Virus record (IMG/VR): IMGVR_UViG_3300031576_000060
Location: 1-52,509 of that record
Source of the DNA: a virus
Lineage: Duplodnaviria; Caudoviricetes
Length of the DNA: 52,509 nucleotides
Reading direction: 5' to 3' (one strand)
The position numbers and the translations under genes were made by a program. The notes under the pieces are model-generated. The model made no database searches. It was not told where the DNA came from and saw nothing but the letters and a program-made list of their open reading frames with translations. Of the stretch, positions 21,028 through 40,098 are shown in pieces; within the stretch, counting starts at the first letter, position 1; each line of letters begins with the position of its first letter.

Positions 21028-24000
21028 TCACCGGAGCTGCCCGGCCGGGTAGCAGTGGCGCAGGACCGTCAGGATCTGTGGGCAGGGCGGCATCTCGGCT
21101 CCGTCGGTCTCGCCCTTGTCCAACCGGTAGAGGTAGTCCGAGATGCCCTCAGCATACCGCTTGACGTCGGCGTCGTCCTTGACGCGGTCGGGCGCCTTGT
21201 AGACCTTGTTGTGCGCCCAGTCGGCGAACCAGGTCTGCCGGGTCGTCCGGAGCTGGGCCTCCACGACCTTCCCGTTGATCCGCACGAGCAAGTGGATCGA
21301 TCGGTAACCGCCCGGGCGCGCCCGGTCGCTCAAGTCCTCGACCTCGATGAGGCCGTCATCCGTTCCCTTCGGATCGACCTCCGGCATCTTGGAGATGACC
21401 GACTGGAGGGCCGCCTGCGACTCGGCCAGATTGCCGTGCGTCAGCCTGGTGCCCGCGTGGTCGGTCAGCTCTTCGGGCGCGAACGCCCGCCCCCTCTCCT
21501 TCTCGCGCCGCTTGAGCTTCTCGAAGATGGAGTCCGCCGACTTGATGCGCCCGATGACCTCGCCGCCTCCGGAGACCTCGCTCAAGAAGTCGGCGACCGC
21601 CTCGAACGCTGGGACGTAGCTCTCGGCCACGCCTTGCAGGTAGGTCAGCTCCTCGGGGGATGCAGCATCGCCGGACACGAGCGGCCAGTCGGCACCCTCG
21701 CCAGTCGGCAGCCGCCACTTCTCCGCGAGCGCCCGGACCTGCTCGGAGGATTCGGGGTTCGGCTGGCCGAACTGCTCGACCAGCAGCATGCCGACCTCTG
21801 GGTCGACGCCCGGGGGCGCGCCGTGCTCGGGCTCGGCTGGCGTGAACTGCCGTTCCTTGCCCGGTTCCTGCGGCTTCTTGGTCAGCTTCTTGGTGGTGGC
21901 CGGGTACTTCTTGATGTACCGCTTCTGCTCCTCGTACGACTTCGAGTCCCACCACTCCTGCGCGGTGATCCCGAGGCTCGCGAGCAGGAGGGCGCGGCGA
22001 TCCCGCTGGAACCGTTCGCACGCGCAACCGTCGCCCATCTCGTCCGCGAAACATGGGCGGGGCGACACATCTGCATGTTCACCCAACCGATGGCCGCACC
22101 GGCACACGACGTCCAGGTTGGAGTAATCGTAGCGGCCCTGGTCGCGTCGTTCGTGGGACCGGTCGATGTCGACCCCGCCGCACTGTGGGCACTTGATCGT
22201 CAGTTGGCCGGCGGGCGCGTCCTCATCGATCCCGAAGTGCTTGGCGTAGTCGCGGTGACCGCAGCCCCTGCACTGCGCCTCCCCGGACCCGAGTGCCGCC
22301 TTCTTCTCGGACTCCGGCTTGGTCTTGTGCTCGCGGGTGTGCTCGGCGTGATCGACGACCTCCAGGTTGGACGGCGCGTTGTTCGACTTGTCCTCGTCGA
22401 TGTGGTGGACGTCTTCGCTCGGCTTGAGCGGGCGGTCGAGCTTCTCCTTCATGACGCGCCGGTGCTCGCGCTCGCCATCCGAGTTCCGCTCCCACCTACG
22501 CTCGTCTTCGTACCCGACGATCCCCAAGCCGGCGAGCAGGCGGGCGACCACTGGGGTTGGGACCCCTCCGGCCGCTTCGCCGCCCTCCTGGTCGGCCCCG
22601 CCCTCCTCCTCTTCCTTGCCCGGCACCTTCTCCAGGAGATCCTTGTCCAGATAGAGGACGGCCTGCGGGTGGTCCTTGAACGCGACCCCGATCATGTAGC
22701 CTTGAACGCCCACCACCTCGCCGACGTCGTCTTGGCGAAGCCCCAGCATCGTCTCCTTGAGCTTGACCTCGTCGCCCACCTCGAAGTCGGCGTCGTCGCC
22801 TTCCTCGTCGTCCCCACCGCCGAATTGCGCCACGATCCCCAAGCGCGCCAACACGGCGGTCCCGCTCATCTCACCCTCCGGCATGTCGCCGAGCAACTTG
22901 GTCAGGGCTTCGTCGTCCGCCTGACCAAATTGGTCGGCTGACCCGGCGATCAACTCGACCATTTTGGTCAGGAACGCGTCGATCTGATCTTGCGCGTGAC
23001 GGCTGGCGAACAGGGCGGCGCGCCCCACCGCCTTGGCGGTCGCTTCAGCGGCCCAGTGGGTCGCGAGCGCCTGAGCGGTCAGGTGGCCCAACCCGCCGAT
23101 CGCGATCGACCCCGCGACCGTGACGGCGAGCGACCGGACCGCCCGGCCGATCACCTTTTTCTCGTCGGCGGACAGCTCTTGGCCGCTCGACATCTTGGCG
23201 ATCGCCGCGCCAGCCGCCCGGTACTCCCGCAGCTCCTGGGCGAGCATCCCGACGGCCGCCCGTCCCTTCCGACGGATCGCTTGGCCGGCCGCCTTCCCAA
23301 CTTCCGCCCGGTAGCCCGGGTCATCGAACAGCCGGCGGGTCTGGGCCGGCAGCTTGGCCGCCTTCTCGGCGAGCCCCGCGACCCCTTCGGTCACGCGCGC
23401 GAGGAACCCGGGGCCCGCCGGTACGTTCGACGGCTTGGTGTCGCGGTCGAGCCTGGGGGTTGGGGCTGGCGCGCGGGGCGCGCCGAACAGCGCGGTGTCG
23501 ACCTTCGCTTCCATGCCGTACGCGACCCGGTCGAGCCAGTCGGCGGTCGCGTCGACCGTGCGCTTCAGCTTGGTGATGGCGGGCGCGACCGCTTCGCCCA
23601 GCAGCGACCAGAGACCCTTGGCGGTATTGCGGAACCGGCTGGCCAAGCTGCCCGCCGCCCGCTGCAACGCCTCACCCGGCAGACCGGCGAGCCGCCGGAC
23701 CTCCGCGCCCGTCCGCTTGAGCGCGTCGACGCCAGCGTTCACGGCCTCGCGGGTCTCGCGCTCCATCGACTCGGCGAGCTTCTGGACGTCCCCGAGCGCC
23801 TCGCTCAGATTGCGCTCCAGCCCGTCGGCGATCTGGTGGGCCTGCCCGACCAACCCGCCGGTCGCGCGCGGCGTTGGTGGCGCTTCTGTGAGCGGCTCGG
23901 GCGCGGGCTCGACCCAACCGCCCGGTGGCTCGGTGGGGCCGGCGGGCGGTTCCTGGGGGGCCGTTTCGAGGGCGGGCTCAGGCTCGGGCGGCGTGGTAGC

Positions 24001-25707
24001 GGCGGGCGGCTCGGTCGGCGTTGGAGCGGTCGGCGCCTGCTCGGGCGCCTCGCCCGGCTCGACGATCTCGTTGACGAACGGGCCGCCCGGCTTTTCCTGC
24101 CGGAGCGTGAAGGTCCGGCCGGACGGCAGTTTGACGGGCTCGTTTGGCGTCACCCGGGTGGTCTTCAGGTGGGCACGGTCCGCATCGTCCAGCTTGGGCG
24201 CCCGCTTGGGCTTGGCGGGCGCGTCTTTGGGCGCCTTCTTGGGCTTGGCGGGGGCCTTGTCGTCGAACCCGGGCGCTTTCGTCCTGGACCTCTGGTCGGG
24301 CACCCGCTTGGTCCGGGGGTGGTCCCGCTTGTAGTCGGTCTGCTCCTTGAACGACATGTCCGACCACCAGTCCGCCGTGATGCCGAGACCGATGAGCACG
24401 CGGGTGCCTGCCGGACGCGCGGCCGACCGGTAGAGCCGGTGGAGCACCTGGAGGGCTTGCTCGTCGGTCAGGTCGGGGGATTGCTGCTTGACCCGCGCGA
24501 GCCACTCGCCGCACTTCTGGCAGGTCGAGCCGCCCGCCAGCGTCTTGCCCCCGCACACGAAGCAGTCGACCTCGGGCCAATCGGCCAGCATGACGCCGCA
24601 CGACGGGCACGTCTCGGTCTTCTGCCGGAGGGGCGCGCCGCACTCGGGGCACTGGAGGGCCCGCTGGGAGATAATCCGTGGGTCCCCGATTGTCTCGTGG
24701 GTGGCCGCCGAGATACTCGCGTGACCATCGACTTTCTCGCGGCGAGCGAGCGGACGAGAACCCGGGGGTCTGGCGTTTTGGTCGGCGGTCCTGGGCTCCC
24801 CGGGCAGCTCGACCTCCTCGATCGTGCTGTCGGGCTCCCGGGTGTCACCGATCGCCACCTCGACGGTCTCGGCGGTCCATTCGGCGGTGGGGGGTGAGAG
24901 GGCAAGGCCCTGGTCGCTCAAGTACGCGAGGGTGCAATGCGGTGTGAAATCGTAGTTCTCGCGGACCGGTACACCCCCGTCCTTGAGCGCCCGAACCAGG
25001 TCGGTACGGAGGGCGGCCAACCCGTTGCCCGTCACGGTCGCGACGGTCGGGTAGACCCCGTCACTCGACTCGAACTGGGCGATCCCCGTGAACTTCATCG
25101 AAATGGGACCGTACTCCCGGCAGACCCGCGCGACCGTCTCGACGATGAAGTCGGAACAGCAGAGCGTCACATGGAGCTGGTTCCACGCCTGTGCCTCATC
25201 GCCCACGCGGTCGCGGACCTGTTGCTCGACCTGCTTGGCGATCGCGTCAGGCAGCATGAGCGCGACCATCGAGGTGGTCGGCTTGTCGGCACGCCGCAGC
25301 TCCACCACCTCGACGGCGCCGCTATCGAAGTCGTCCTTCAGCACCATCGAGGAGTCGGCGGGACCCGTCTTCTGCCCTTCCCACCGGATCGAGACGTAAC
25401 GGGGTGGATCCTGTGGGTCGATCGAGACCACCTCGCCGAACGTGCCGGCTGGTGGGTCCTGGTCGCCCAGCTCGACGGTCGTGCGGACGCGCGCGCTGAC
25501 CTGCGGGGGCCACACGGTCCCCGCCCTCGTCATCTGGCCGGCACCAGGCTCCAGGTACGTGTCGGTCGTGGGGTCGCGGCCCAGCTCCAACGCGAAGTTG
25601 TCGTCGAGGTAGCGGTCCGACATCCACCGCTCCGGCAGGTCGGACTCCTGGTGCTGCTGGGGTTGATCGGGACGGCCGGGCGCTACCGTATTGGATCGAC
25701 CGGTCAT
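21028..25707 (-). CDS. 1559-aa multidomain protein: 2H phosphoesterase, Zn ribbons, HNH, C-terminal RelA/SpoT synthetase-like domain
   Basis: HVTL and HCTL (2H motifs); EHRRVM...VHHIDEDKSNN...NL (HNH); GRIKSADSIFEK, DHAGTRL, GYRSIH, EAQLRT, WAHNKVYK (RelA/SpoT). Confidence 0.85.
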   Translation of the reverse strand: MTGRSNTVAPGRPDQPQQHQESDLPERWMSDRYLDDNFALELGRDPTTDTYLEPGAGQMTRAGTVWPPQVSARVRTTVELGDQDPPAGTFGEVVSIDPQDPPRYVSIRWEGQKTGPADSSMVLKDDFDSGAVEVVELRRADKPTTSMVALMLPDAIAKQVEQQVRDRVGDEAQAWNQLHVTLCCSDFIVETVARVCREYGPISMKFTGIAQFESSDGVYPTVATVTGNGLAALRTDLVRALKDGGVPVRENYDFTPHCTLAYLSDQGLALSPPTAEWTAETVEVAIGDTREPDSTIEEVELPGEPRTADQNARPPGSRPLARREKVDGHASISAATHETIGDPRIISQRALQCPECGAPLRQKTETCPSCGVMLADWPEVDCFVCGGKTLAGGSTCQKCGEWLARVKQQSPDLTDEQALQVLHRLYRSAARPAGTRVLIGLGITADWWSDMSFKEQTDYKRDHPRTKRVPDQRSRTKAPGFDDKAPAKPKKAPKDAPAKPKRAPKLDDADRAHLKTTRVTPNEPVKLPSGRTFTLRQEKPGGPFVNEIVEPGEAPEQAPTAPTPTEPPAATTPPEPEPALETAPQEPPAGPTEPPGGWVEPAPEPLTEAPPTPRATGGLVGQAHQIADGLERNLSEALGDVQKLAESMERETREAVNAGVDALKRTGAEVRRLAGLPGEALQRAAGSLASRFRNTAKGLWSLLGEAVAPAITKLKRTVDATADWLDRVAYGMEAKVDTALFGAPRAPAPTPRLDRDTKPSNVPAGPGFLARVTEGVAGLAEKAAKLPAQTRRLFDDPGYRAEVGKAAGQAIRRKGRAAVGMLAQELREYRAAGAAIAKMSSGQELSADEKKVIGRAVRSLAVTVAGSIAIGGLGHLTAQALATHWAAEATAKAVGRAALFASRHAQDQIDAFLTKMVELIAGSADQFGQADDEALTKLLGDMPEGEMSGTAVLARLGIVAQFGGGDDEEGDDADFEVGDEVKLKETMLGLRQDDVGEVVGVQGYMIGVAFKDHPQAVLYLDKDLLEKVPGKEEEEGGADQEGGEAAGGVPTPVVARLLAGLGIVGYEDERRWERNSDGEREHRRVMKEKLDRPLKPSEDVHHIDEDKSNNAPSNLEVVDHAEHTREHKTKPESEKKAALGSGEAQCRGCGHRDYAKHFGIDEDAPAGQLTIKCPQCGGVDIDRSHERRDQGRYDYSNLDVVCRCGHRLGEHADVSPRPCFADEMGDGCACERFQRDRRALLLASLGITAQEWWDSKSYEEQKRYIKKYPATTKKLTKKPQEPGKERQFTPAEPEHGAPPGVDPEVGMLLVEQFGQPNPESSEQVRALAEKWRLPTGEGADWPLVSGDAASPEELTYLQGVAESYVPAFEAVADFLSEVSGGGEVIGRIKSADSIFEKLKRREKERGRAFAPEELTDHAGTRLTHGNLAESQAALQSVISKMPEVDPKGTDDGLIEVEDLSDRARPGGYRSIHLLVRINGKVVEAQLRTTRQTWFADWAHNKVYKAPDRVKDDADVKRYAEGISDYLYRLDKGETDGAEMPPCPQILTVLRHCYPAGQLR

Positions 25708-31208: not shown

Positions 31209-34200
31209 CTACTCGGTCGCTTCGGCAGGCGCGACCTGCGGGGCCGCCTGCTCGCTCGTCATGAACGAAACGGTCGCGATGCCAGCGTCGACATCGATGT
31301 CTTCCACGGTGGGGTCGGCGCTGAACCCCCAGTTCTTCGTCGAGTTGCGGTCGGTCGCCTGCCGCTGGCCGATCTCGCGCGTCACGTACGAGCGGATCTG
31401 CTGCTTGATCCCCTCGGTCGACATGGCCGCAAGCGACTCGGGCTCCCACGAGAGATCCCAGACGACACGGTCGCCTTTGCTCCGCTCGTTCGACTTCTCG
31501 AACTGGATGCCGGCTGCGGCGGGCGGCATGCCAAGCGGCTGGGCGCGACGACGAGATGCGCTCGCGTCGAGCGGCTCGCACTCCGGGCAGCCAGGCAGGT
31601 CGATGCCGTACGGCTTTCCCGGGACCGGCCTGGATCGCTGCTGGGCCTGCCGGCCCCCAACCGCCGCGACACACGCGGGGCACCAGAACTCTTCGGCCGA
31701 CAGGTTGCCGGAGCCCTGGCCGCCCGACTCCTGGTAGACGTCGCGATGCACGTACGTCATGGCGCCCGGCGCGACGGGCTGGCCGCACAGCGTCGTGTCG
31801 AAGTCGTCGGTGATGTGGGTCGCGTCCGCCTGTGCCTGGTGGACCGCCGCGTCGAACCAGCCGCCCGGCGCCTCGCCCCCCTCATCCCGGTAGGTGCAGT
31901 CGCGGCACTGGTACCCCTTCGCCTTCTCCTGCGCGGAGATGGCGTCCGGCTTCCCGCACGACGGGCACGGATACCGCTTGCCCCGCTGCGCTTCCTTCTC
32001 GTTGTCCTCGGACGGCTTGGCCTTCCCGTCCGACTTCTCCTTCATCTTCTTCTTGAACTTGTCGTCCGAGATGTCGTCGTACCAGGCGGCCAGCCGCTCG
32101 AACACGCTCGCGTCCTTCGCGAGGTCGATGTCGTAGCTGCCGCACTTCGGGCACTTGGGCTCCGGCGAACTCGTCTTGAACGTCTTGCCGCACTCCAGGC
32201 ACTCGACCGACATCTTGTCGGCCGCGTCCTTGTCGTGCCCCCACTCACGATCGATCTCCTCGAAGAAGTCGCTGACCCGCTCGTCCGGCTGGTCGAACGG
32301 ATGGTCGATCCCCCACTCCTTCGCCTTGTCCTCGACGAACCGCTGGTACTCGTTCTTGTCGGCCTCGCGGGTCGTGTCCTCGAACGTCTCGGGGCCCTCG
32401 GGGGTCTCGTCCATGGTGACGGGACCGCCGAGCGGCGCGTCGGGGGCGGGCGGAGCAGCTCGGCGGCGCGCCTGGATGCTGGTCACCGCGTCCGACCCGC
32501 ACTCCGGGCAAGTCCAGTAATCGTCCTTCGTGACCTCGAACCGGTTGTTGCACTGCTGGCACCGGACCTTCGTCGGACCTTCGGTCGGGGTCGGGTTGGA
32601 GTAGGGCTTGTACTTCTCCGGCTGGTAGTCGGCGTCCTGCTCGAACGACTCGTCCGGCTGCTCGTCCATCTGGCCGAGCTGCTGCATCCCACGGGTCGCG
32701 CAGTAGAACGACGGGGTGCCATCATCGTCGTCCCCGAACCCCCCGTTCATCCGCTGCTGGTCCGACGCCTTCATAGGCGCCGTGCTGGTCTCGGCCCACG
32801 CCTGACCCTCTTGGTCCATGCCGTACGCATCGGCCCGCTGGCATTCACCATCACCCTCGATCGAACAGCCGGCCTGCTCGCAATCACCGCAGAGCGCTGG
32901 CTTGCCATCCCCGTCGATCGCGACATCGAAGCAGTCGCGGCACGCGCAGTCCGTGTAGCCCGATGCCACCCGACCACCGGTCGCATCCTTGATGGCGTCC
33001 TGTTGGGCGGCCTTGTCGTACCCGCCGACCGCCGGATGGCACGGGCAGTCGCAAGGCCACGGGCACTTGTCCAGCGCGCTCGACAGCCCGGATTCCGGCC
33101 CGTCGTACTCGTGGCACGGGCAGTCACAGGCCCCCTCGCACGAGTCGATCGCATTCGACAGGTACGATGCACGACGGCTCGCCTGCTTCCCCATCGCCGC
33201 TTCGCACTCTGGGCACCAGCCCATGTACTCCCGGACGCTCGGGTCGGTGCGCTCCCACACGACCGGGTCGCTCACCCCCATCGTCCCCGGATCCACCGGC
33301 TGACCACAGAGGGTTGTGCGCTTGTCCTTGCTGATGTGCAGCGGTTCTTCTCCGGATGGTGGCTGCTGATCCATCGCCCACGGCTCGGGCCCAGTCGCTC
33401 GCCGGCTCTTCTTCCAATGCGCTGGCGCAGCGTCCCTGAGTTCGTAACCCTTCTCCCTCGCCCATTCGATCAGGGAGTTGGGATCCTCGGAAGCCGCACC
33501 ATCCACGTACTGGTCGTTCGCATCGAACACGTCGATGCGCCAATACCCCGGGCCCCCACTGATGACTCCGTAGCTCCCATTGACCCCCTGCGCTCGCCTA
33601 CTCGCCCCACTGGGCGTACCGACGCCTGTCTCTACCGGGGCACCTGCTGACGGGGCACCGCTAGGGGTCTTGCGCTTCGGCTTCCATCCGAACTCATCGC
33701 CCCGCTCGGGCCCCTCGTCGCCCGTGTCGGCCGCCCGGCCCGCCACATCGCTGGGCCCGACGATCGCGTCCAGTTCGCGGGCGTACTCCTCGAACAACGG
33801 GTCGCCGGTCGTCTCGTCCACCCCCGCCATCGCTTCGGCGTCGTAGCCGCACGCCTGGCACGTGCCGGTGCCGGGCGACCACTGAGGGACGGGTGCATCG
33901 CACAGTGGGCAACCGTCTTCGCCGCCCTCCTGCTCGACCTCATCCATGAACTGGCCGCGCTTCTGCCCGACCCGCGGGCTCGACGTCTCCTGCTCGATGG
34001 CAGCCGCCAACCACTGCTCGGCGAACGCCTGCGCCTCTTCGAGCGACCCGAACTTCCGCCCGTTCGCCGCGTCCACCCACGTGAACACGTCGTACGTGTC
34101 GAACTTGAACTCGCCGCCCCGCCCATCGATCCGCATCGGCACCTTGATGGGCCGGCCACCCTGGATGTCGATCGGGACCTTGGCCTCCGACGCCCACACG

Positions 34201-36071
34201 TCCCCGCCCTTCTCCTCCCACGCGAGCGCGGCGGTCCGGTAGTGCGCCTCGACCCACCGGAACCCCAGCGGGTTGAACGCGAACAGGTCGTCCCGGTTGG
34301 TCGGCTTGGGCACGTTGTAGCCGTCCCAGAACACGATCTTGGCCACTTCGCTCATCGAGCGACCACGCAGCCGGTCCTTGACCGTCCCCTTGATGTCCCG
34401 CTTGGTGTAGTCGGGGCCCGCGTAGCTGCCGGGTGTCGTGCCGGTCGCGATCACCCCGCCGCCCGCATCCACCGCCTCCCAGGTGTGCCACCCCTGCGCG
34501 ACCTTCTTGCCGGCCGCCATCGGTTGACCCTGGGGCATCTGCTGTTGGGCTTGCGGCTGGGGCGTCAGCGGGGCGGCGGGCTGCGCCTGTCCCTGCTGCT
34601 GTTCCTCCGGCTGCCCGTCGGGCGAGCGCGTCAACCCCATGTCGTTCAGCTCACGATGGATCCGAACCAGGTCGTCGACCCCGTCCGCCTCGACCTCCCG
34701 GCTGAACTTGCCGTCCTGATCCCACACCTCTTTCGTGCGGGCCGGGTTGACCTTGCCGGGCTGAGGGGGCGGCGAGCCACCAGGCTGTCCGGTCTGCTGT
34801 CCGGGCTGACCCGGTTGAGCGGGCTTCGGCTCGGCGGGGCGCTCGGGCTCCATGGGGTTCTGCTGGGCGCTCCGGCCCGCACGTCCGAGCGGATCGGTCA
34901 GCTCCTTCTGGTAGTCGACCCCCGGACCGGGCTGCCGGTCGCGCTCCTCCCGTTCCTCCTCGGTCGTGATGCCGTAGCTCGCGGGGCACTCGCAGTCGGC
35001 GCACCCGAGGTCGTCGTGCCGGTTCTTCGGGCACCGGCACCCCGCGCACTCGTTCGATTGAGCGGTCCGGCCGACCAGCAGGTCGATCTGTTGGTCGCTC
35101 ATCTCGGCGATCGCCCCGTCCGACCAACCGGCCGCACGGAGCTGGGCGCGTCGCGACCCTTCCACCTGGATGACGCCAGCCGCCTCGTCGTAGTACCGAA
35201 CCCAGCCGTTCGGCCACCTGACCGCCACGGCGCCCGGGTGCTGGGGCACGTCGGTCGCGACCTCCCCGACCGTCCCGACCGGTACCGCGTCATCGACCTC
35301 TTGGACCCCGTAGCCCGGTTCGTCCGGATCCTTCTCGGGCGCCACCTTGGTGACCTGCTGGGCGCGCCGACGCCCTACGGACGCGTACGCGCGGTCGGGA
35401 TGACCCTCCTGCACGGCCGTCAGCTCCTCGAACGCTTGGTCGATCGAGCCGGCCTGCCGGTGGCCCGTCTTCGCGCGCTCCAGCAGCTCCCACCCGATCC
35501 CCACCATCTCGCCGAGCGACATCGCCGTGAACTTCTGTTGGTTGTTGGGGCTGAGGGCATCGTGGACCTGGACCAACATGTTGGCGGTGGTGGCGTCGAG
35601 TAGCGTGCCCTCCACCTCCTCGGCCTGATGGTTCTGCACGATCCGCCTGGCCACCTCGATGGTGTCGGCCGAGCTGACGCGCGGCTGCCCTGTTCCATCG
35701 GCCGGTTCATCGGCGACCGGGTAGCCGTCGGGCGGAGGTTCGCGGGTGACGGGTGGGGCGTCCGCCTTCTTCTCGCCCTCCAGCTCCAGGTAGAACTGGG
35801 CCTGGTGGCCCATGACGCTCGCCCTATCCTTCTTCAGCCTGACCCGATCGCCCACCTGAAAACCACCTGCTTGCGCGACTCGCGCGCCCACCGCGAACGC
35901 GTCCCCATGGATCGCGGCACGAACGAGCCCACGACCGATCTGGTCGATCGTGGGGCGTTGAAGAGCGCGGCGCGCTTCTTCGCCGCGGGCCTCGTGGGTC
36001 TGGTGGAACGCCGCATCCGTGATGGGTCCGGCGGGGCGGGCTCGACGTGCTGGTTGGCGGGTCGACATCAT
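31209..36071 (-). CDS. about 1620-aa acidic modular protein (putative virion polyprotein of many small Zn-ribbon/SH3-like modules)
   Basis: GGGAGG SD before ATG 36071; more than 20 (R/K)-x-A-(Q/S/D/A) motifs separating 30-90 aa modules. Confidence 0.8.
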   Translation of the reverse strand: MMSTRQPARRARPAGPITDAAFHQTHEARGEEARRALQRPTIDQIGRGLVRAAIHGDAFAVGARVAQAGGFQVGDRVRLKKDRASVMGHQAQFYLELEGEKKADAPPVTREPPPDGYPVADEPADGTGQPRVSSADTIEVARRIVQNHQAEEVEGTLLDATTANMLVQVHDALSPNNQQKFTAMSLGEMVGIGWELLERAKTGHRQAGSIDQAFEELTAVQEGHPDRAYASVGRRRAQQVTKVAPEKDPDEPGYGVQEVDDAVPVGTVGEVATDVPQHPGAVAVRWPNGWVRYYDEAAGVIQVEGSRRAQLRAAGWSDGAIAEMSDQQIDLLVGRTAQSNECAGCRCPKNRHDDLGCADCECPASYGITTEEEREERDRQPGPGVDYQKELTDPLGRAGRSAQQNPMEPERPAEPKPAQPGQPGQQTGQPGGSPPPQPGKVNPARTKEVWDQDGKFSREVEADGVDDLVRIHRELNDMGLTRSPDGQPEEQQQGQAQPAAPLTPQPQAQQQMPQGQPMAAGKKVAQGWHTWEAVDAGGGVIATGTTPGSYAGPDYTKRDIKGTVKDRLRGRSMSEVAKIVFWDGYNVPKPTNRDDLFAFNPLGFRWVEAHYRTAALAWEEKGGDVWASEAKVPIDIQGGRPIKVPMRIDGRGGEFKFDTYDVFTWVDAANGRKFGSLEEAQAFAEQWLAAAIEQETSSPRVGQKRGQFMDEVEQEGGEDGCPLCDAPVPQWSPGTGTCQACGYDAEAMAGVDETTGDPLFEEYARELDAIVGPSDVAGRAADTGDEGPERGDEFGWKPKRKTPSGAPSAGAPVETGVGTPSGASRRAQGVNGSYGVISGGPGYWRIDVFDANDQYVDGAASEDPNSLIEWAREKGYELRDAAPAHWKKSRRATGPEPWAMDQQPPSGEEPLHISKDKRTTLCGQPVDPGTMGVSDPVVWERTDPSVREYMGWCPECEAAMGKQASRRASYLSNAIDSCEGACDCPCHEYDGPESGLSSALDKCPWPCDCPCHPAVGGYDKAAQQDAIKDATGGRVASGYTDCACRDCFDVAIDGDGKPALCGDCEQAGCSIEGDGECQRADAYGMDQEGQAWAETSTAPMKASDQQRMNGGFGDDDDGTPSFYCATRGMQQLGQMDEQPDESFEQDADYQPEKYKPYSNPTPTEGPTKVRCQQCNNRFEVTKDDYWTCPECGSDAVTSIQARRRAAPPAPDAPLGGPVTMDETPEGPETFEDTTREADKNEYQRFVEDKAKEWGIDHPFDQPDERVSDFFEEIDREWGHDKDAADKMSVECLECGKTFKTSSPEPKCPKCGSYDIDLAKDASVFERLAAWYDDISDDKFKKKMKEKSDGKAKPSEDNEKEAQRGKRYPCPSCGKPDAISAQEKAKGYQCRDCTYRDEGGEAPGGWFDAAVHQAQADATHITDDFDTTLCGQPVAPGAMTYVHRDVYQESGGQGSGNLSAEEFWCPACVAAVGGRQAQQRSRPVPGKPYGIDLPGCPECEPLDASASRRRAQPLGMPPAAAGIQFEKSNERSKGDRVVWDLSWEPESLAAMSTEGIKQQIRSYVTREIGQRQATDRNSTKNWGFSADPTVEDIDVDAGIATVSFMTSEQAAPQVAPAEATE

Positions 36072-36081
36072 GGCCTCCCGG

Positions 36082-37794
36082 TCAGACGTTCTCGGGGTCG
36101 TCCGGACCGCGGACGTGCCGGAGGGTCCCGCGCAGCGCATCCCTCAAGGCCACACGGTCGACCCGCTTGCGCGCCGAGCGGCCGGGCGAAACCTTCCCGA
36201 CGTCGAAGGCGGCCGGCTCCTCGTCGCTGGAGTGACGGCCCAGGTTGGTGTCGGGCAGGCTGGTGCCCGCTTGATCGGCGCCTGGATGCTGGGGCTTGAC
36301 GGTTGGGTCGGAGAACCCCTCTTCCTCATTGACCCCTTCGCCCATGTTGGCGGCCGGCTCCGAAGTACCGGGCTGGTCTTGCGCGGGATGCTCCTGCTCG
36401 ATCGACCCGGCCTCCAGGCTGTCGACGTCCTGCCCGCTCGACTCCTCGCCGAGCGGCTGCTTGGCCTTCGGGGGCTTGACGGCGTCGGGCTGCTGGTCGT
36501 TGACCTCGCCGGCTTCGAGCGCCTGCCCCTCGACCACCCGGGCGAAGTAGTCGATCGCGGCGGTCATGCGACGGAGCGGCCACACCATCGGCGGTTCGCC
36601 GGTCCGCCGGTCGGACGTCATCTCGACCTGGTCGTTCGTCCCGAGCTGGAGGCGGTAGCGCCCCACCCGCACCTGCTTGCCTTCGAGCAGGATGTCCTCG
36701 ATGCGGGCGCGCGAAACCTTCTTGGTGGCCATGCGCGACTCCTCCGCTTCCTCGGCGGGCGCGTTCTCGCGCTCGTGTTGATCGACCAGTTGTTCGACCT
36801 GCTCGCCCAGCTCCGCGTCCTCCGGCTCATCCGTCTGGGCGCGACGACCGGACGCTCGCAGCTCCGCGTCTTCCTCGGCGAGCTTCTCGGCGTCGTCCGA
36901 TTGACCCGCGACCCCCGGGTTGAACTCGGGCTCGCTTGGCTTATCGGCGCGTCGCCCCTTCACGATCTTGTCGGCGTCGACCGCGTCGTCGAGCGATTGG
37001 CCTTCTTCGGGAACGTCCGGGTGGAACGCCTGCTCGCCCGCATCCCCCGCATCCCCGGCCTGCCGGCCCTTCTTGTCCTTGTCCTTCTGGATCGACCACG
37101 CGACCGCGTACGGCTCCTTGATGTCGGGATCACGCTTCAGCTCGTGCATCGTCTCTTCGGAGACGCCGGGGGGTGTGACGGCCGTCCGGTTGATCTCCGC
37201 GAGCATGAACGCGCGGGCCCGCCGGCTCAACGGATCGGAACCGTCAAGCCCGTTGTTTCGGATCGTCCGGTCGTAGTCGGCCTGCGAGTGGATCGTGGCG
37301 GCGAGCGCGCGCAACCGCTTGACCGGGAGCTGGTGGAACCCGGCGGCCGGCAGCACCTCGTCGAACAGGACACGCGCCATGCTCTTGGGGTACTCGCCGG
37401 TCGCGCGCCGCCGCAGCTCCGCGAGGTCCGCGATCGTGAGCGCCCCCTCCTTGTCGATCGTCCAGATGCGATGGAGCGTGAGGGCGGCGCGACGAAGACC
37501 GTAGTCGCGCGGGTTCGCGCGCGCGGTCCTGACGGCCAATTGGGCCGCGTCCCACTTGGAAATGGCGGGCGTCGGATCGTTCGCGAGCGAGCGGTGGAGC
37601 TGCTCGGCGATCTTGCGCCGCACCACCTCGACGTGCGGGGTCTTGGGTCTGGTGGCAGCGTCGTGCGCGGCTCTCTCGCGCGCATCCAGCTCGCCTCGCG
37701 CCTGCCGGAGATACCGTTGTCCCAGCTCCGAGTTGATGAGCCGGTCGAACGACGTGGTTGCCCCGTAGATCCCGGCCAGATGTCTCGTCTTCAC
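36082..37794 (-). CDS. basic/acidic modular protein, putative head/scaffold-associated
   Basis: GGAGG SD before GTG 37794 (track start 37920); RTAV, RQAG, RRAD, RRAQ motifs; ELKRDPDIKEPYAVAWS module. Confidence 0.7.
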   Translation of the reverse strand: MKTRHLAGIYGATTSFDRLINSELGQRYLRQARGELDARERAAHDAATRPKTPHVEVVRRKIAEQLHRSLANDPTPAISKWDAAQLAVRTARANPRDYGLRRAALTLHRIWTIDKEGALTIADLAELRRRATGEYPKSMARVLFDEVLPAAGFHQLPVKRLRALAATIHSQADYDRTIRNNGLDGSDPLSRRARAFMLAEINRTAVTPPGVSEETMHELKRDPDIKEPYAVAWSIQKDKDKKGRQAGDAGDAGEQAFHPDVPEEGQSLDDAVDADKIVKGRRADKPSEPEFNPGVAGQSDDAEKLAEEDAELRASGRRAQTDEPEDAELGEQVEQLVDQHERENAPAEEAEESRMATKKVSRARIEDILLEGKQVRVGRYRLQLGTNDQVEMTSDRRTGEPPMVWPLRRMTAAIDYFARVVEGQALEAGEVNDQQPDAVKPPKAKQPLGEESSGQDVDSLEAGSIEQEHPAQDQPGTSEPAANMGEGVNEEEGFSDPTVKPQHPGADQAGTSLPDTNLGRHSSDEEPAAFDVGKVSPGRSARKRVDRVALRDALRGTLRHVRGPDDPENV

Positions 37795-38791: not shown

Positions 38792-39449
38792 CTAGGCGGT
38801 GGCGGGCATACCGGTTCGCTTGACGGGTGCAACTTCGTCGCCCAGACACAGCCATCCTTCTCGCTGGGTTCTGGCGAACAGCTCCACGTATGGGCCGGGC
38901 GAGACCTTCTCGACGATCTGCCGGTAGAACACCTCGGGCTTGCTCGAATGGCGCTCGTATGGAGCGAAGAAAAGGGAACGGATCGATGCCGAGAGCCGCT
39001 CGGGCCGCCCCATCTGGCCGATCAAGCAAGTCTCATGGGATGCCCTCAACGTCCTCCCCATCCCGAAGTGGAGCTTGTCCTCATCACCCAGCTCTTCGGC
39101 GTCGAACACGGGACCGGGCCCCTTCGAGACCTTCGCCCAGACCACCTCGGTCTTGAGCGTGAATCCCCACGCCTTCATGACGTCGAGCGCTTCCTGCTGC
39201 ATGGACGCGACCCGCCACAAGAACAGCCGGCAATCCGGTGCAAGATAGTGGCGGAGCGGGATCGCCCGACCGGTCTGCGGGTCCCGCTCGAACCCGTTCT
39301 CCGCATCATCGAGGAACCTGGCGATCTGGTCGACGGTCAGGACCCGGTAGTTCTTGGCGGCGCCTCGCGAGGCGCCAGGCAACTTGTCGCCGAAGAGGTC
39401 AAAGCCACGGCGGATCAGCGCAAAGCGTCTTGATCATGAGCGTGGACAT
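38792..39449 (-). CDS. MT-A70 family N6-adenine methyltransferase, requiring a +1 frameshift at CTT-TGA-C (or a pseudogene)
   Basis: GGAGGT SD, ATG 39449, MSTLMIKTLCADPPWL then TGA; the +1 frame continues DLFGDKLPGASRGAAKNY...LFLW...WGF...GMGRTLRASHE...HSSKPE...ELFAR...GW..LGDE. Confidence 0.85.
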
Positions 39450-40098
39450 TCGGCACCTCCTTTCTGTGACGGAGGAAAGCCTCCGCTAGCCGGTACATCC
39501 GAGAGTCAGGACCGTCGTTGTGAAAGAGGTTCATGATGTTGAGCACGAACCGGACATTTCGCTTGGTGTAGCCACCACGCGGGTTGATCCGGTCGCAGCT
39601 CAACGAATTCCATGCGAACCCACGGCCCTTCTCCCCCTTCACCTTGGCCCACTTCATCGGGAGCCCTGTAAGGGCGCAGCACCACTGTTGTGTTTCTAGC
39701 TTCTTCAGAACCCATTCCTTCGTCAGATCAAACGGCACGCTCCTGTCTGACGAGGGACGTATACGGTGATACCCACCGCGCAAAGCGGAATGCCGACATC
39801 TTCGGATGATCTCGGCTGCCGCTCCCCGCTTTGTCATTCGTCTGTACTGCTCAATCCCTTTCGATTCACACACGCGGCAGACATTGTTGATCCACTGCTC
39901 CGACTTATATTCACGGAAGCGGCTTCGACACCGAAATAGCTCGATCGCGAGCATCTTCCTGCACGTGCGACACCGTTTTTTCGTACGGTCCGCGTTGTAG
40001 CTACTGTAGTCAGCCACGATCCACCGTGTGACACGTATTGCACGGCGGATAGCGTTGTCAAGCGTTTTCCGTAAGCCGGTAACCGGGATCGTTTCCAC
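39415..40098 (-). CDS. HNH-like endonuclease (SxDRI...GY...NV family)
   Basis: CRTC...CRVC, CALTG, SLSCDRINPRGGYTKRNVRFV; lower GC; true start may be downstream of 40098. Confidence 0.75.
   Translation of the reverse strand: METIPVTGLRKTLDNAIRRAIRVTRWIVADYSSYNADRTKKRCRTCRKMLAIELFRCRSRFREYKSEQWINNVCRVCESKGIEQYRRMTKRGAAAEIIRRCRHSALRGGYHRIRPSSDRSVPFDLTKEWVLKKLETQQWCCALTGLPMKWAKVKGEKGRGFAWNSLSCDRINPRGGYTKRNVRFVLNIMNLFHNDGPDSRMYRLAEAFLRHRKEVPNVHAHDQDALR
40035..40070 (-). promoter_or_regulatory. possible sigma70-like promoter of the same family
   Basis: GGAAAACGCTTGACA matches the -35 contexts at 21020 and 25726; -10 element weak. Confidence 0.4.

Follow-up and report, generated by a model that had tools for sequence, protein, structure and literature searches.

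We report here that the 52,509-base stretch of phage DNA held as IMG/VR virus record IMGVR_UViG_3300031576_000060 (Duplodnaviria; Caudoviricetes; hereafter the window) bears a predicted MT-A70-type DNA adenine methyltransferase gene interrupted, directly behind the codons of its catalytic DPPW motif, by the seven bases CTTTGAC, which reproduce in frame the CUU_UGA_C shift site of the bacterial release factor gene prfB and leave the remainder of the enzyme in the +1 frame. This insert is genuine and derived, and none of the homologues compared shares it. We tentatively favor, at a rough probability of 0.45, a reading where the methyltransferase gene is kept useful by recoding at CUU, and find it nearly tied with the alternative of a gene freshly inactivated by the same seven bases.

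On its minus strand the window encodes portal, terminase and head functions, and the locus considered here (Table 1) lies on this strand too. An earlier note, made from the letters of this DNA, had described a strong Shine-Dalgarno sequence (SD) and an ATG followed by DPPW and then CTT-TGA-C at 39404-39398, and each of these elements, the series of codons included, is correct on the sequence. The ATG (39449-39447, minus strand) lies downstream of AAGGAGGTG, whose duplex with a generic anti-SD reaches -12.9 kcal/mol relative to a window background mean of -2.0. From this start the first open reading frame (ORF1) reads M S T L M I K T L C A D P P W L stop, that is 16 codons, and the frame-0 codons through the site are GCT GAT CCG CCG TGG CTT TGA CCT CTT CGG. 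Within the insert, CTT (39404-39402) is followed by T, TGA occupies 39401-39399 and the last C stands at 39398; the CTC codon behind it continues as TTC GGC GAC AAG (FGDK), and the +1 frame is open from GAC (39400) to TAG (38794-38792). DPPW in frame 0 and the remainder of the domain in the +1 frame are not joined in one reading frame, and are united only if ribosomes recode.

Table 1. Positions of the elements of the interrupted methyltransferase locus and of its upstream neighbor in the window.
Feature	Coordinates	Strand	Basis or remark
227-aa endonuclease-like ORF (HNH / endonuclease VII type by PHROG)	39415..40098	-	immediately upstream of methyltransferase; TGA stop 11 nt before insert
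Shine-Dalgarno AAGGAGGTG of methyltransferase gene	39454..39462	-	sequence; within read-on tail of upstream endonuclease-like ORF
ORF1, frame 0: ATG, 15 codons (MSTLMIKTLCADPPWL), TGA	39399..39449	-	sequence, translation
Catalytic DPPW codons GAT CCG CCG TGG	39405..39416	-	sequence; aligned with homologues
7-nt insert CTT TGA C: slippery/take-off Leu codon, in-frame UGA, 3' C	39398..39404	-	missing from all relatives
CTC Leu codon, candidate landing site for a 7-nt hop	39395..39397	-	directly after insert
ORF2, +1 frame, GAC...TAG, 202 codons, remaining MT-A70 domain	38792..39400	-	Pfam, PHROG, conservation, dN/dS
18-nt perfect palindrome GGCGCCTCGCGAGGCGCC inside ORF2	39359..39376	.	begins 22 nt past UGA; role possibly none

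To judge the enzyme as a whole, we used a read-through translation in which TGAC is taken as one step, giving a product of 218 amino acids (aa), P0002. This product matches the Pfam family MT-A70 (PF05063) at 60.2 bits (E 3.1e-16; cut-off at the gathering score of 23.9), phrog_359 'DNA methyltransferase' at 2.1e-50, and solved MT-A70 and METTL3 chains at 1.9e-9 and weaker, in agreement with the earlier placement of the rest of the enzyme in the +1 frame. On these matches the gene is predicted to encode a phage MT-A70 DNA adenine methyltransferase, intact apart from the insert. The use of TGA as a sense codon was considered and rejected, frame 0 past the TGA being unlike a methyltransferase and holding further stops.

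Relatives were gathered in a scan of viral contigs (35 related loci, the best of them, L003, at 72% identity), in a metagenome scan (80 kept of 200 relatives, making 115 loci together with those from viral contigs) and in a protein search, from which the best 120 of 1,622 homologues at E <= 1e-20 were kept; one of these is the window's own truncated 196-aa call, leaving 119. Among the uninterrupted relatives are L038/L039 at 72% (the same sequence as L003), L040 at 64% and L041 at 50%, and DNA alignment with L003, L040 and L041 leaves each of the three with one clean gap of 7 columns, placed precisely at CTTTGAC. At the protein level, DPPW or DPAW is found in 108 of the 119 homologues, each time with one residue before F/Y-x-D-x-LPG and with 10-12 residues to the G-A-x-x-x-Y motif (11 in 103 of the 108), and another 10 have DPGW or DCPW with identical visible spacing, the last (P0015) being without the N-terminus. 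A single residue consequently separates the catalytic motif from F/Y-x-D-x-LPG in 118 of the 118 homologues keeping the region, and a longer spacing or insert occurs in 0 of the 119. As all 118 of these have the one-residue spacing and the window exactly seven extra bases, the insert is derived, and the earlier proposal of a discrete element whose removal restores the family's usual spacing is borne out. In this MT-A70 clade the tetrapeptide is more variable than the spacing behind it: close homologues swap DPPW for DPAW, DPGW or DCPW yet retain xFGDxLPG (variants in L040:2570-2581, P0007, P0008, P0029, P0030, P0074 and P0107, and in a second group made up of P0011, P0028, P0031, P0044, P0061, P0069, P0078, P0090, P0110 and P0119).

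Apart from the insert, the gene is undegraded. In the alignment of P0002 with the 119 homologues, the window keeps 59 of the 59 columns that are conserved at >=90%, a complete set retained by only 39 of the 120 aligned sequences. For ORF2 compared with L003, dN/dS is 0.285 by NG86 and 0.069 by maximum likelihood (ML), and between the intact relatives L003 and L040 it is 0.404 (NG86) and 0.009 (ML); overall, the window's ratio to L003 is no higher than that between intact relatives. With dS near saturation these values give no age for the insert; what they show is limited to two options, a young insert or a gene on which selection still acts. The strong SD and the ATG are still present, and the DPPW codons within ORF1 are perfectly conserved. 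The earlier note had held that absence of CTTTGAC from relatives, if accompanied by decay of the downstream frame, would speak against recoding, and had proposed looking for its conservation in homologous MT-A70 genes; the motif is indeed conserved in none of them, yet the downstream frame has not decayed.

How could ribosomes join the two parts? Upstream of 39382 the +1 frame, as far back as its preceding stop, is without ATG, GTG or TTG, and a shift must follow TGG to keep DPPW; DPPW can accordingly be joined to the enzyme only at the CUU codon, while UGA occupies the A site, and two routes through this codon would be available. A +1 slip onto UUU, as in prfB, would produce DPPW-L-D-L-F-G-D-K. 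Alternatively, a 7-nt hop of the peptidyl-tRNA from CUU to the adjacent CUC, with decoding resumed at UUC, would yield DPPW-L-F-G-D-K, the family's normal form, in which Leu is the residue after the motif in several homologues. The take-off and candidate landing codons are synonymous, not identical, and both would be read by one tRNA-Leu. The hop, like the endonuclease-like gene upstream, had not been raised in the earlier note. Synthetic stop-hops between matched codons flanking a stop are described in excerpts of a review (PMC5009743). On mechanistic grounds, some trans-frame product is likely whether the gene is kept useful by recoding or has been freshly inactivated.

With respect to the slip, the window has two of the elements of a prfB-type site: CUU in P-site position followed by U, and an in-frame UGA with a 3' C. 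The earlier identification of CUU-UGA-C with the prfB shift site agrees with the literature; excerpts of two papers describe CUU_UGA_C as that site, CUU_U as the best shifter and UGA-C as a weak stop (PMC5009743, PMC12421855), and from such established knowledge we infer that the heptamer is intrinsically shifty. According to excerpts of one survey (PMC12421855), the prfB motif is found in 64% of 12,753 genomes and in 0 of 2,658 Actinomycetota, and the full motif shifts at 52.7% in B. subtilis, compared with about 6% for M. smegmatis. The E-site codon at the window's site is UGG, which gave intermediate frameshifting in an RF2 reporter according to part of another study (PMC2377451). CTT is a rare codon in a crude gene set of the window, at 3.2 per 1000 codons vs 26.8 for CTC. 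The earlier note had also suggested that the Asp-Pro-Pro-Trp codons could supply a ribosomal pause; excerpted data do rank PPW as a strong EF-P-dependent pause motif (PMC5885033), and the suggestion stands to that extent, whereas the pause would sit two codons ahead of the shift and DPPW is common to the whole family, which weakens the idea.

These data support a model, at the tentative level stated above, where the 7-nt insert is probably linked to the arrival of the neighboring endonuclease-like gene, either as a scar of repair or co-conversion or as a protection of a cleavage site. Most ribosomes starting from the strong SD and ATG would then terminate at UGA after 16 codons, and a minority would recode at CUU by the +1 slip or the 7-nt hop, and the resulting low level of full-length enzyme would keep the gene useful. 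That this leak is large enough to matter and that the insert was selected are speculative parts of the model. We favor it because of the exact in-frame heptamer, the Leu landing codon, the lack of decay, the retained start and the precedent for an endonuclease beside such an insert.

Several results weigh against recoding of this kind. Pairing of the anti-SD with the 18 nt ahead of CUU reaches only -0.9 kcal/mol, weaker than the background mean, in keeping with the caveat of the earlier note that the internal SD stimulator of prfB is absent; excerpts of the two prfB sources present this SD as a major and highly conserved stimulator, and report that changing any element cuts efficiency (PMC5009743, PMC12421855). 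RNA structure at the site is not significant, with fold z-scores of 0.09 and -1.05 vs shuffled controls, and the site has no match in Rfam. The +1 product would be two residues longer than any listed homologue, and this in a conserved segment of fixed length. The phage is GC-rich and TGA-rich, an unfavorable context as far as the phage itself indicates: of 32 ORFs in a crude gene set of the window, filtered by GC3, 20 terminate in TGA and 7 have TGA-C as their ordinary terminator, and motif loss and poor shifting go with high usage of RF2 stops in excerpts of the survey cited above (PMC12421855). Furthermore, the insert is a single case. A search with the pattern GAYCCNCCNTGGCTTTGAC (DPPW plus CTTTGAC) returned 8 matches in viral contigs, 0 of which had an MT-A70 domain downstream in any frame (the window, as positive control for this test, scores 3e-85), and at least 120 in genome contigs, where none of the 120 listed is an MT-A70 gene. 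Methyltransferase genes are moreover dispensable and sometimes broken: 2 of the 115 related loci have a frameshift, which lies at a poly-G tract in each (G9 in L020, G11 in L108), so by a route other than the window's insert. Finally, this finding was singled out of a very extensive scan on account of the heptamer, and selection bias applies to it. Lack of an SD, of structure and of recurrence, the odd +1 product and the TGA-rich phage together weaken the earlier suggestion that methyltransferase output is attenuated by, or coupled to, host RF2 activity.

The two G-tract breaks (L020:110-135 and L108:3425-3445) may represent phase-variable genes or homopolymer sequencing errors, and P0015, the 172-aa homologue without an N-terminus, might be a second broken gene. 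As for the palindrome GGCGCCTCGCGAGGCGCC, two palindromes of at least 18 nt were seen in the window with 0.62 expected; it folds as a 7-bp hairpin within the region to which the above z-scores apply, and its counterpart in L003 and L040 is not palindromic.

The results gathered against recoding are for the most part also the case for a freshly inactivated gene, the alternative that survives best and that we consider almost as credible as compensation. Here the seven bases would be an inactivating insert, perhaps a scar of the endonuclease's arrival, the likeness to prfB would be coincidental and slipping too rare to matter, and the intact look of the gene would reflect a recent event. Besides the absence of the insert from the 119 listed homologues and of any methyltransferase from the listed pattern matches, the broken genes elsewhere and the TGA-rich genome, every prfB stimulator other than the heptamer is missing, the insert falls in a fixed-length conserved loop beside the catalytic motif, and all +1 frameshifts at a CUU-stop in the RECODE set belong to prfB, as far as excerpts of its description go (PMC10274946). 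How strongly coincidence is strained depends on how the heptamer is counted. Counting both strands, the window has a single CTTTGAC, with 3.31 occurrences expected, and the 7-mer alone is unsurprising because 94 of 100 shuffled windows hold at least one; the unusual feature is that it lies in frame at the sole codon where a shift could join DPPW to the remainder of the enzyme. By our estimate from the window's base composition, a random 7-mer would equal CTTTGAC about 3e-5 of the time, a figure that rises to perhaps 1e-3 when other known shifty stops are counted, and inactivation would need the CUC that follows as a second coincidence. The insert shows no target-site or tandem duplication either, and the surrounding 1.5 kb gave no repeats of at least 8 nt. 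The lack of any second lesion, given the 59 retained columns and the low dN/dS, likewise speaks against a dead gene, as does the abundance in its sample of the phage with this allele (depth figure 464.8).

A further view treats the endonuclease-like gene and the insert as parts of a single mobile cassette, and builds on the neighborhood of the methyltransferase. The 227-aa ORF matches the PHROG families phrog_3322 'endonuclease' (8.8e-17), phrog_1035 'endonuclease VII' (5.8e-12) and phrog_3118 'HNH endonuclease' (6.1e-6), with no match to a Pfam family and no relatives in the viral contigs. Its sole homologue among 5.8 billion proteins, P0123 at 50% identity, ends at the position of residue 213 of the window ORF, which hence extends a further 14 codons, over the SD and start of the methyltransferase. 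At 39415-39457 it runs without its family's normal end, stopping inside the DPPW-coding stretch. Its GC content is 55.7% vs 64-67% in neighboring genes. The gene order of L003 and L040 matches that of the window (a 188-aa ORF, a zinc-ribbon protein, a helix-turn-helix protein and the methyltransferase, followed by a transglycosylase or a 612-aa ORF), and no counterpart of the 227-aa ORF is found in L003, L040 or L041. By these comparisons the 227-aa ORF appears to be lineage-specific and recently acquired. Two lineage-specific events, the endonuclease-like ORF and the insert, hence lie within about 55 nt of one another in a 52-kb genome; we estimate that chance alone would bring them so close in about 1 case in 100 or fewer. 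The arrival of the ORF and the insert are thus probably linked, and a causal role of the endonuclease is speculative. On the opposite, downstream side of the methyltransferase, L003 has an ORF of the same PHROG families (L003:3557-4234; phrog_1035 7.4e-27, phrog_3322 4.4e-20) that overlaps the methyltransferase 3' end, and the neighborhood seems to attract endonuclease-type insertions. Elsewhere in the window, ORFs of 1,559 and 1,643 aa (21028-25707 and 31209-36140) contain HNH endonuclease-like segments, and the former also an RNA-ligase-like one.

The closest precedent for such an arrangement is phage T4, where a homing endonuclease gene adjoins gene 60 and the 50-nt insert of the latter may protect against the nuclease (excerpts of PMC5009743 and 10.1101/2022.08.31.505936; Bonocora et al. 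2011 via PMC5009743). Gene 60/mobA and the window share an early non-coding insert within the gene of a phage enzyme, a stop that immediately follows the take-off codon, flanking codons that one tRNA should be able to read, and a free-standing endonuclease or endonuclease-like gene alongside that is missing in relatives. They differ in that the window's gap is 7 nt and not 50, in that its take-off and landing codons, CUU and CUC, are synonymous and not identical, and in that, of the features of bypassing, neither a significant take-off stem-loop nor SD-like pairing in the gap was found at the site; unlike in the mobA case, the endonuclease is predicted from sequence alone and its host gene is not split. 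A miniature of T4 mobA/gene 60, whose insert would kill the nuclease target in the methyltransferase gene's best-conserved part, would have been selected as a shifty stop between two Leu codons and would be repaired by slip or hop with RF2-dependent output, is on this analogy an unlikely account of the locus taken whole.

Separate use of the two frames is considerably less probable still. In this case the 16-codon ORF1 would be a leader and translation would restart at TTG 39382, the first start codon of the +1 frame, 16 nt past the UGA, yielding a 196-aa protein without DPPW and FGDK, either a dead protein binding DNA or S-adenosylmethionine (SAM) or the product of a gene whose translation is tuned by the leader. 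Public gene calls do list exactly this product (P0003), which however is without motif IV (DPPW) and the conserved xFGDK segment. No SD-like pairing at or below -3.5 kcal/mol was found downstream of the initiation SD (39475-39380 scanned), and the perfect conservation of DPPW in ORF1 is not needed by a leader.

An error of sequencing or assembly, with the true gene uninterrupted, merits the least weight of these alternatives. The sequence does come from a metagenome assembly, and one T fewer in the insert's TTT run would mend the frame; relatives, however, differ by 7 nt and not by 1, and even with a one-base error a two-residue insertion without precedent would remain. Logan contigs from two runs of one sample, probably the source itself, match 39000-39800 exactly and without gaps (depth figures 464.8 and 15.2); as both runs are of the same sample and the comparison is made with assembled contigs and not raw reads, the two are not fully independent and minor variants are outside its reach. 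Because the two assemblies agree over this region, a one-off assembly slip is unlikely. The contigs of the two runs measure 51,708 and 51,785 bases vs 52,509 for the window, and the genome may be nearly complete after all despite a CheckV completeness estimate of 29%. No tRNA genes were found in the window, and a distant DNA search against phage records gave no match. Transcriptional slippage and phase variation were rejected, the site being without a repeat tract and having only TTT.

Comparison with other known systems places the site between categories. With prfB it shares the identical heptamer CUU_UGA_C, a short ORF1 (16 codons here vs 25 in E. coli) whose product would be useless, a functional protein in the +1 frame and an outcome in principle responsive to RF2 activity at UGA. 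It differs from prfB in having no internal SD 3 nt upstream, in its E-site codon (UGG vs UAU), in being conserved in no relative, in a product that is not RF2, so that there would be no feedback loop, and in having originated by insertion at a motif that already existed. A likeness is offered by stop-hops (Weiss et al. 1987 via PMC5009743) in that peptidyl-tRNA leaves the codon before a stop and re-pairs just beyond it, with about 9-10 nt per residue according to the review's excerpts; those cases were engineered and of low efficiency (excerpts of PMC5009743), whereas the hop in the window would be +7 and would change frame. Going by excerpts of the same review, in-frame stop-hops are not known from nature, and brief natural equivalents of the gene 60 bypass, long anticipated, have yet to be found (PMC5009743). 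The 'savior' frameshifting at a G-run of herpesvirus thymidine kinase is a comparable instance of a viral-enzyme indel offset by low-level frameshifting (excerpts of PMC5009743), with the difference that the kinase slips on a homopolymer and is drug-selected, and the window has a shifty stop. Phase-variable methyltransferases, finally, resemble the window gene in a reading frame interrupted early or mid-gene, as in the relatives with G9 (L020) and G11 (L108), and differ in the repeat tract that the window does not have; slipped-strand DNA switching is therefore not expected in it.

Should the cassette view be true, CUU_UGA_C in the window would be the first example of natural recoding at this heptamer in a gene other than prfB, and no natural coding gap would be shorter. 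More generally, the locus is a clean and cheap test case of whether a shifty stop can do its work in nature with no SD to assist it, and could show whether short hops occur and whether recoding renders the invasion of an endonuclease gene harmless. If instead the methyltransferase gene is dead, it calibrates the rate at which perfect recoding motifs arise by chance in metagenomic phage genomes.

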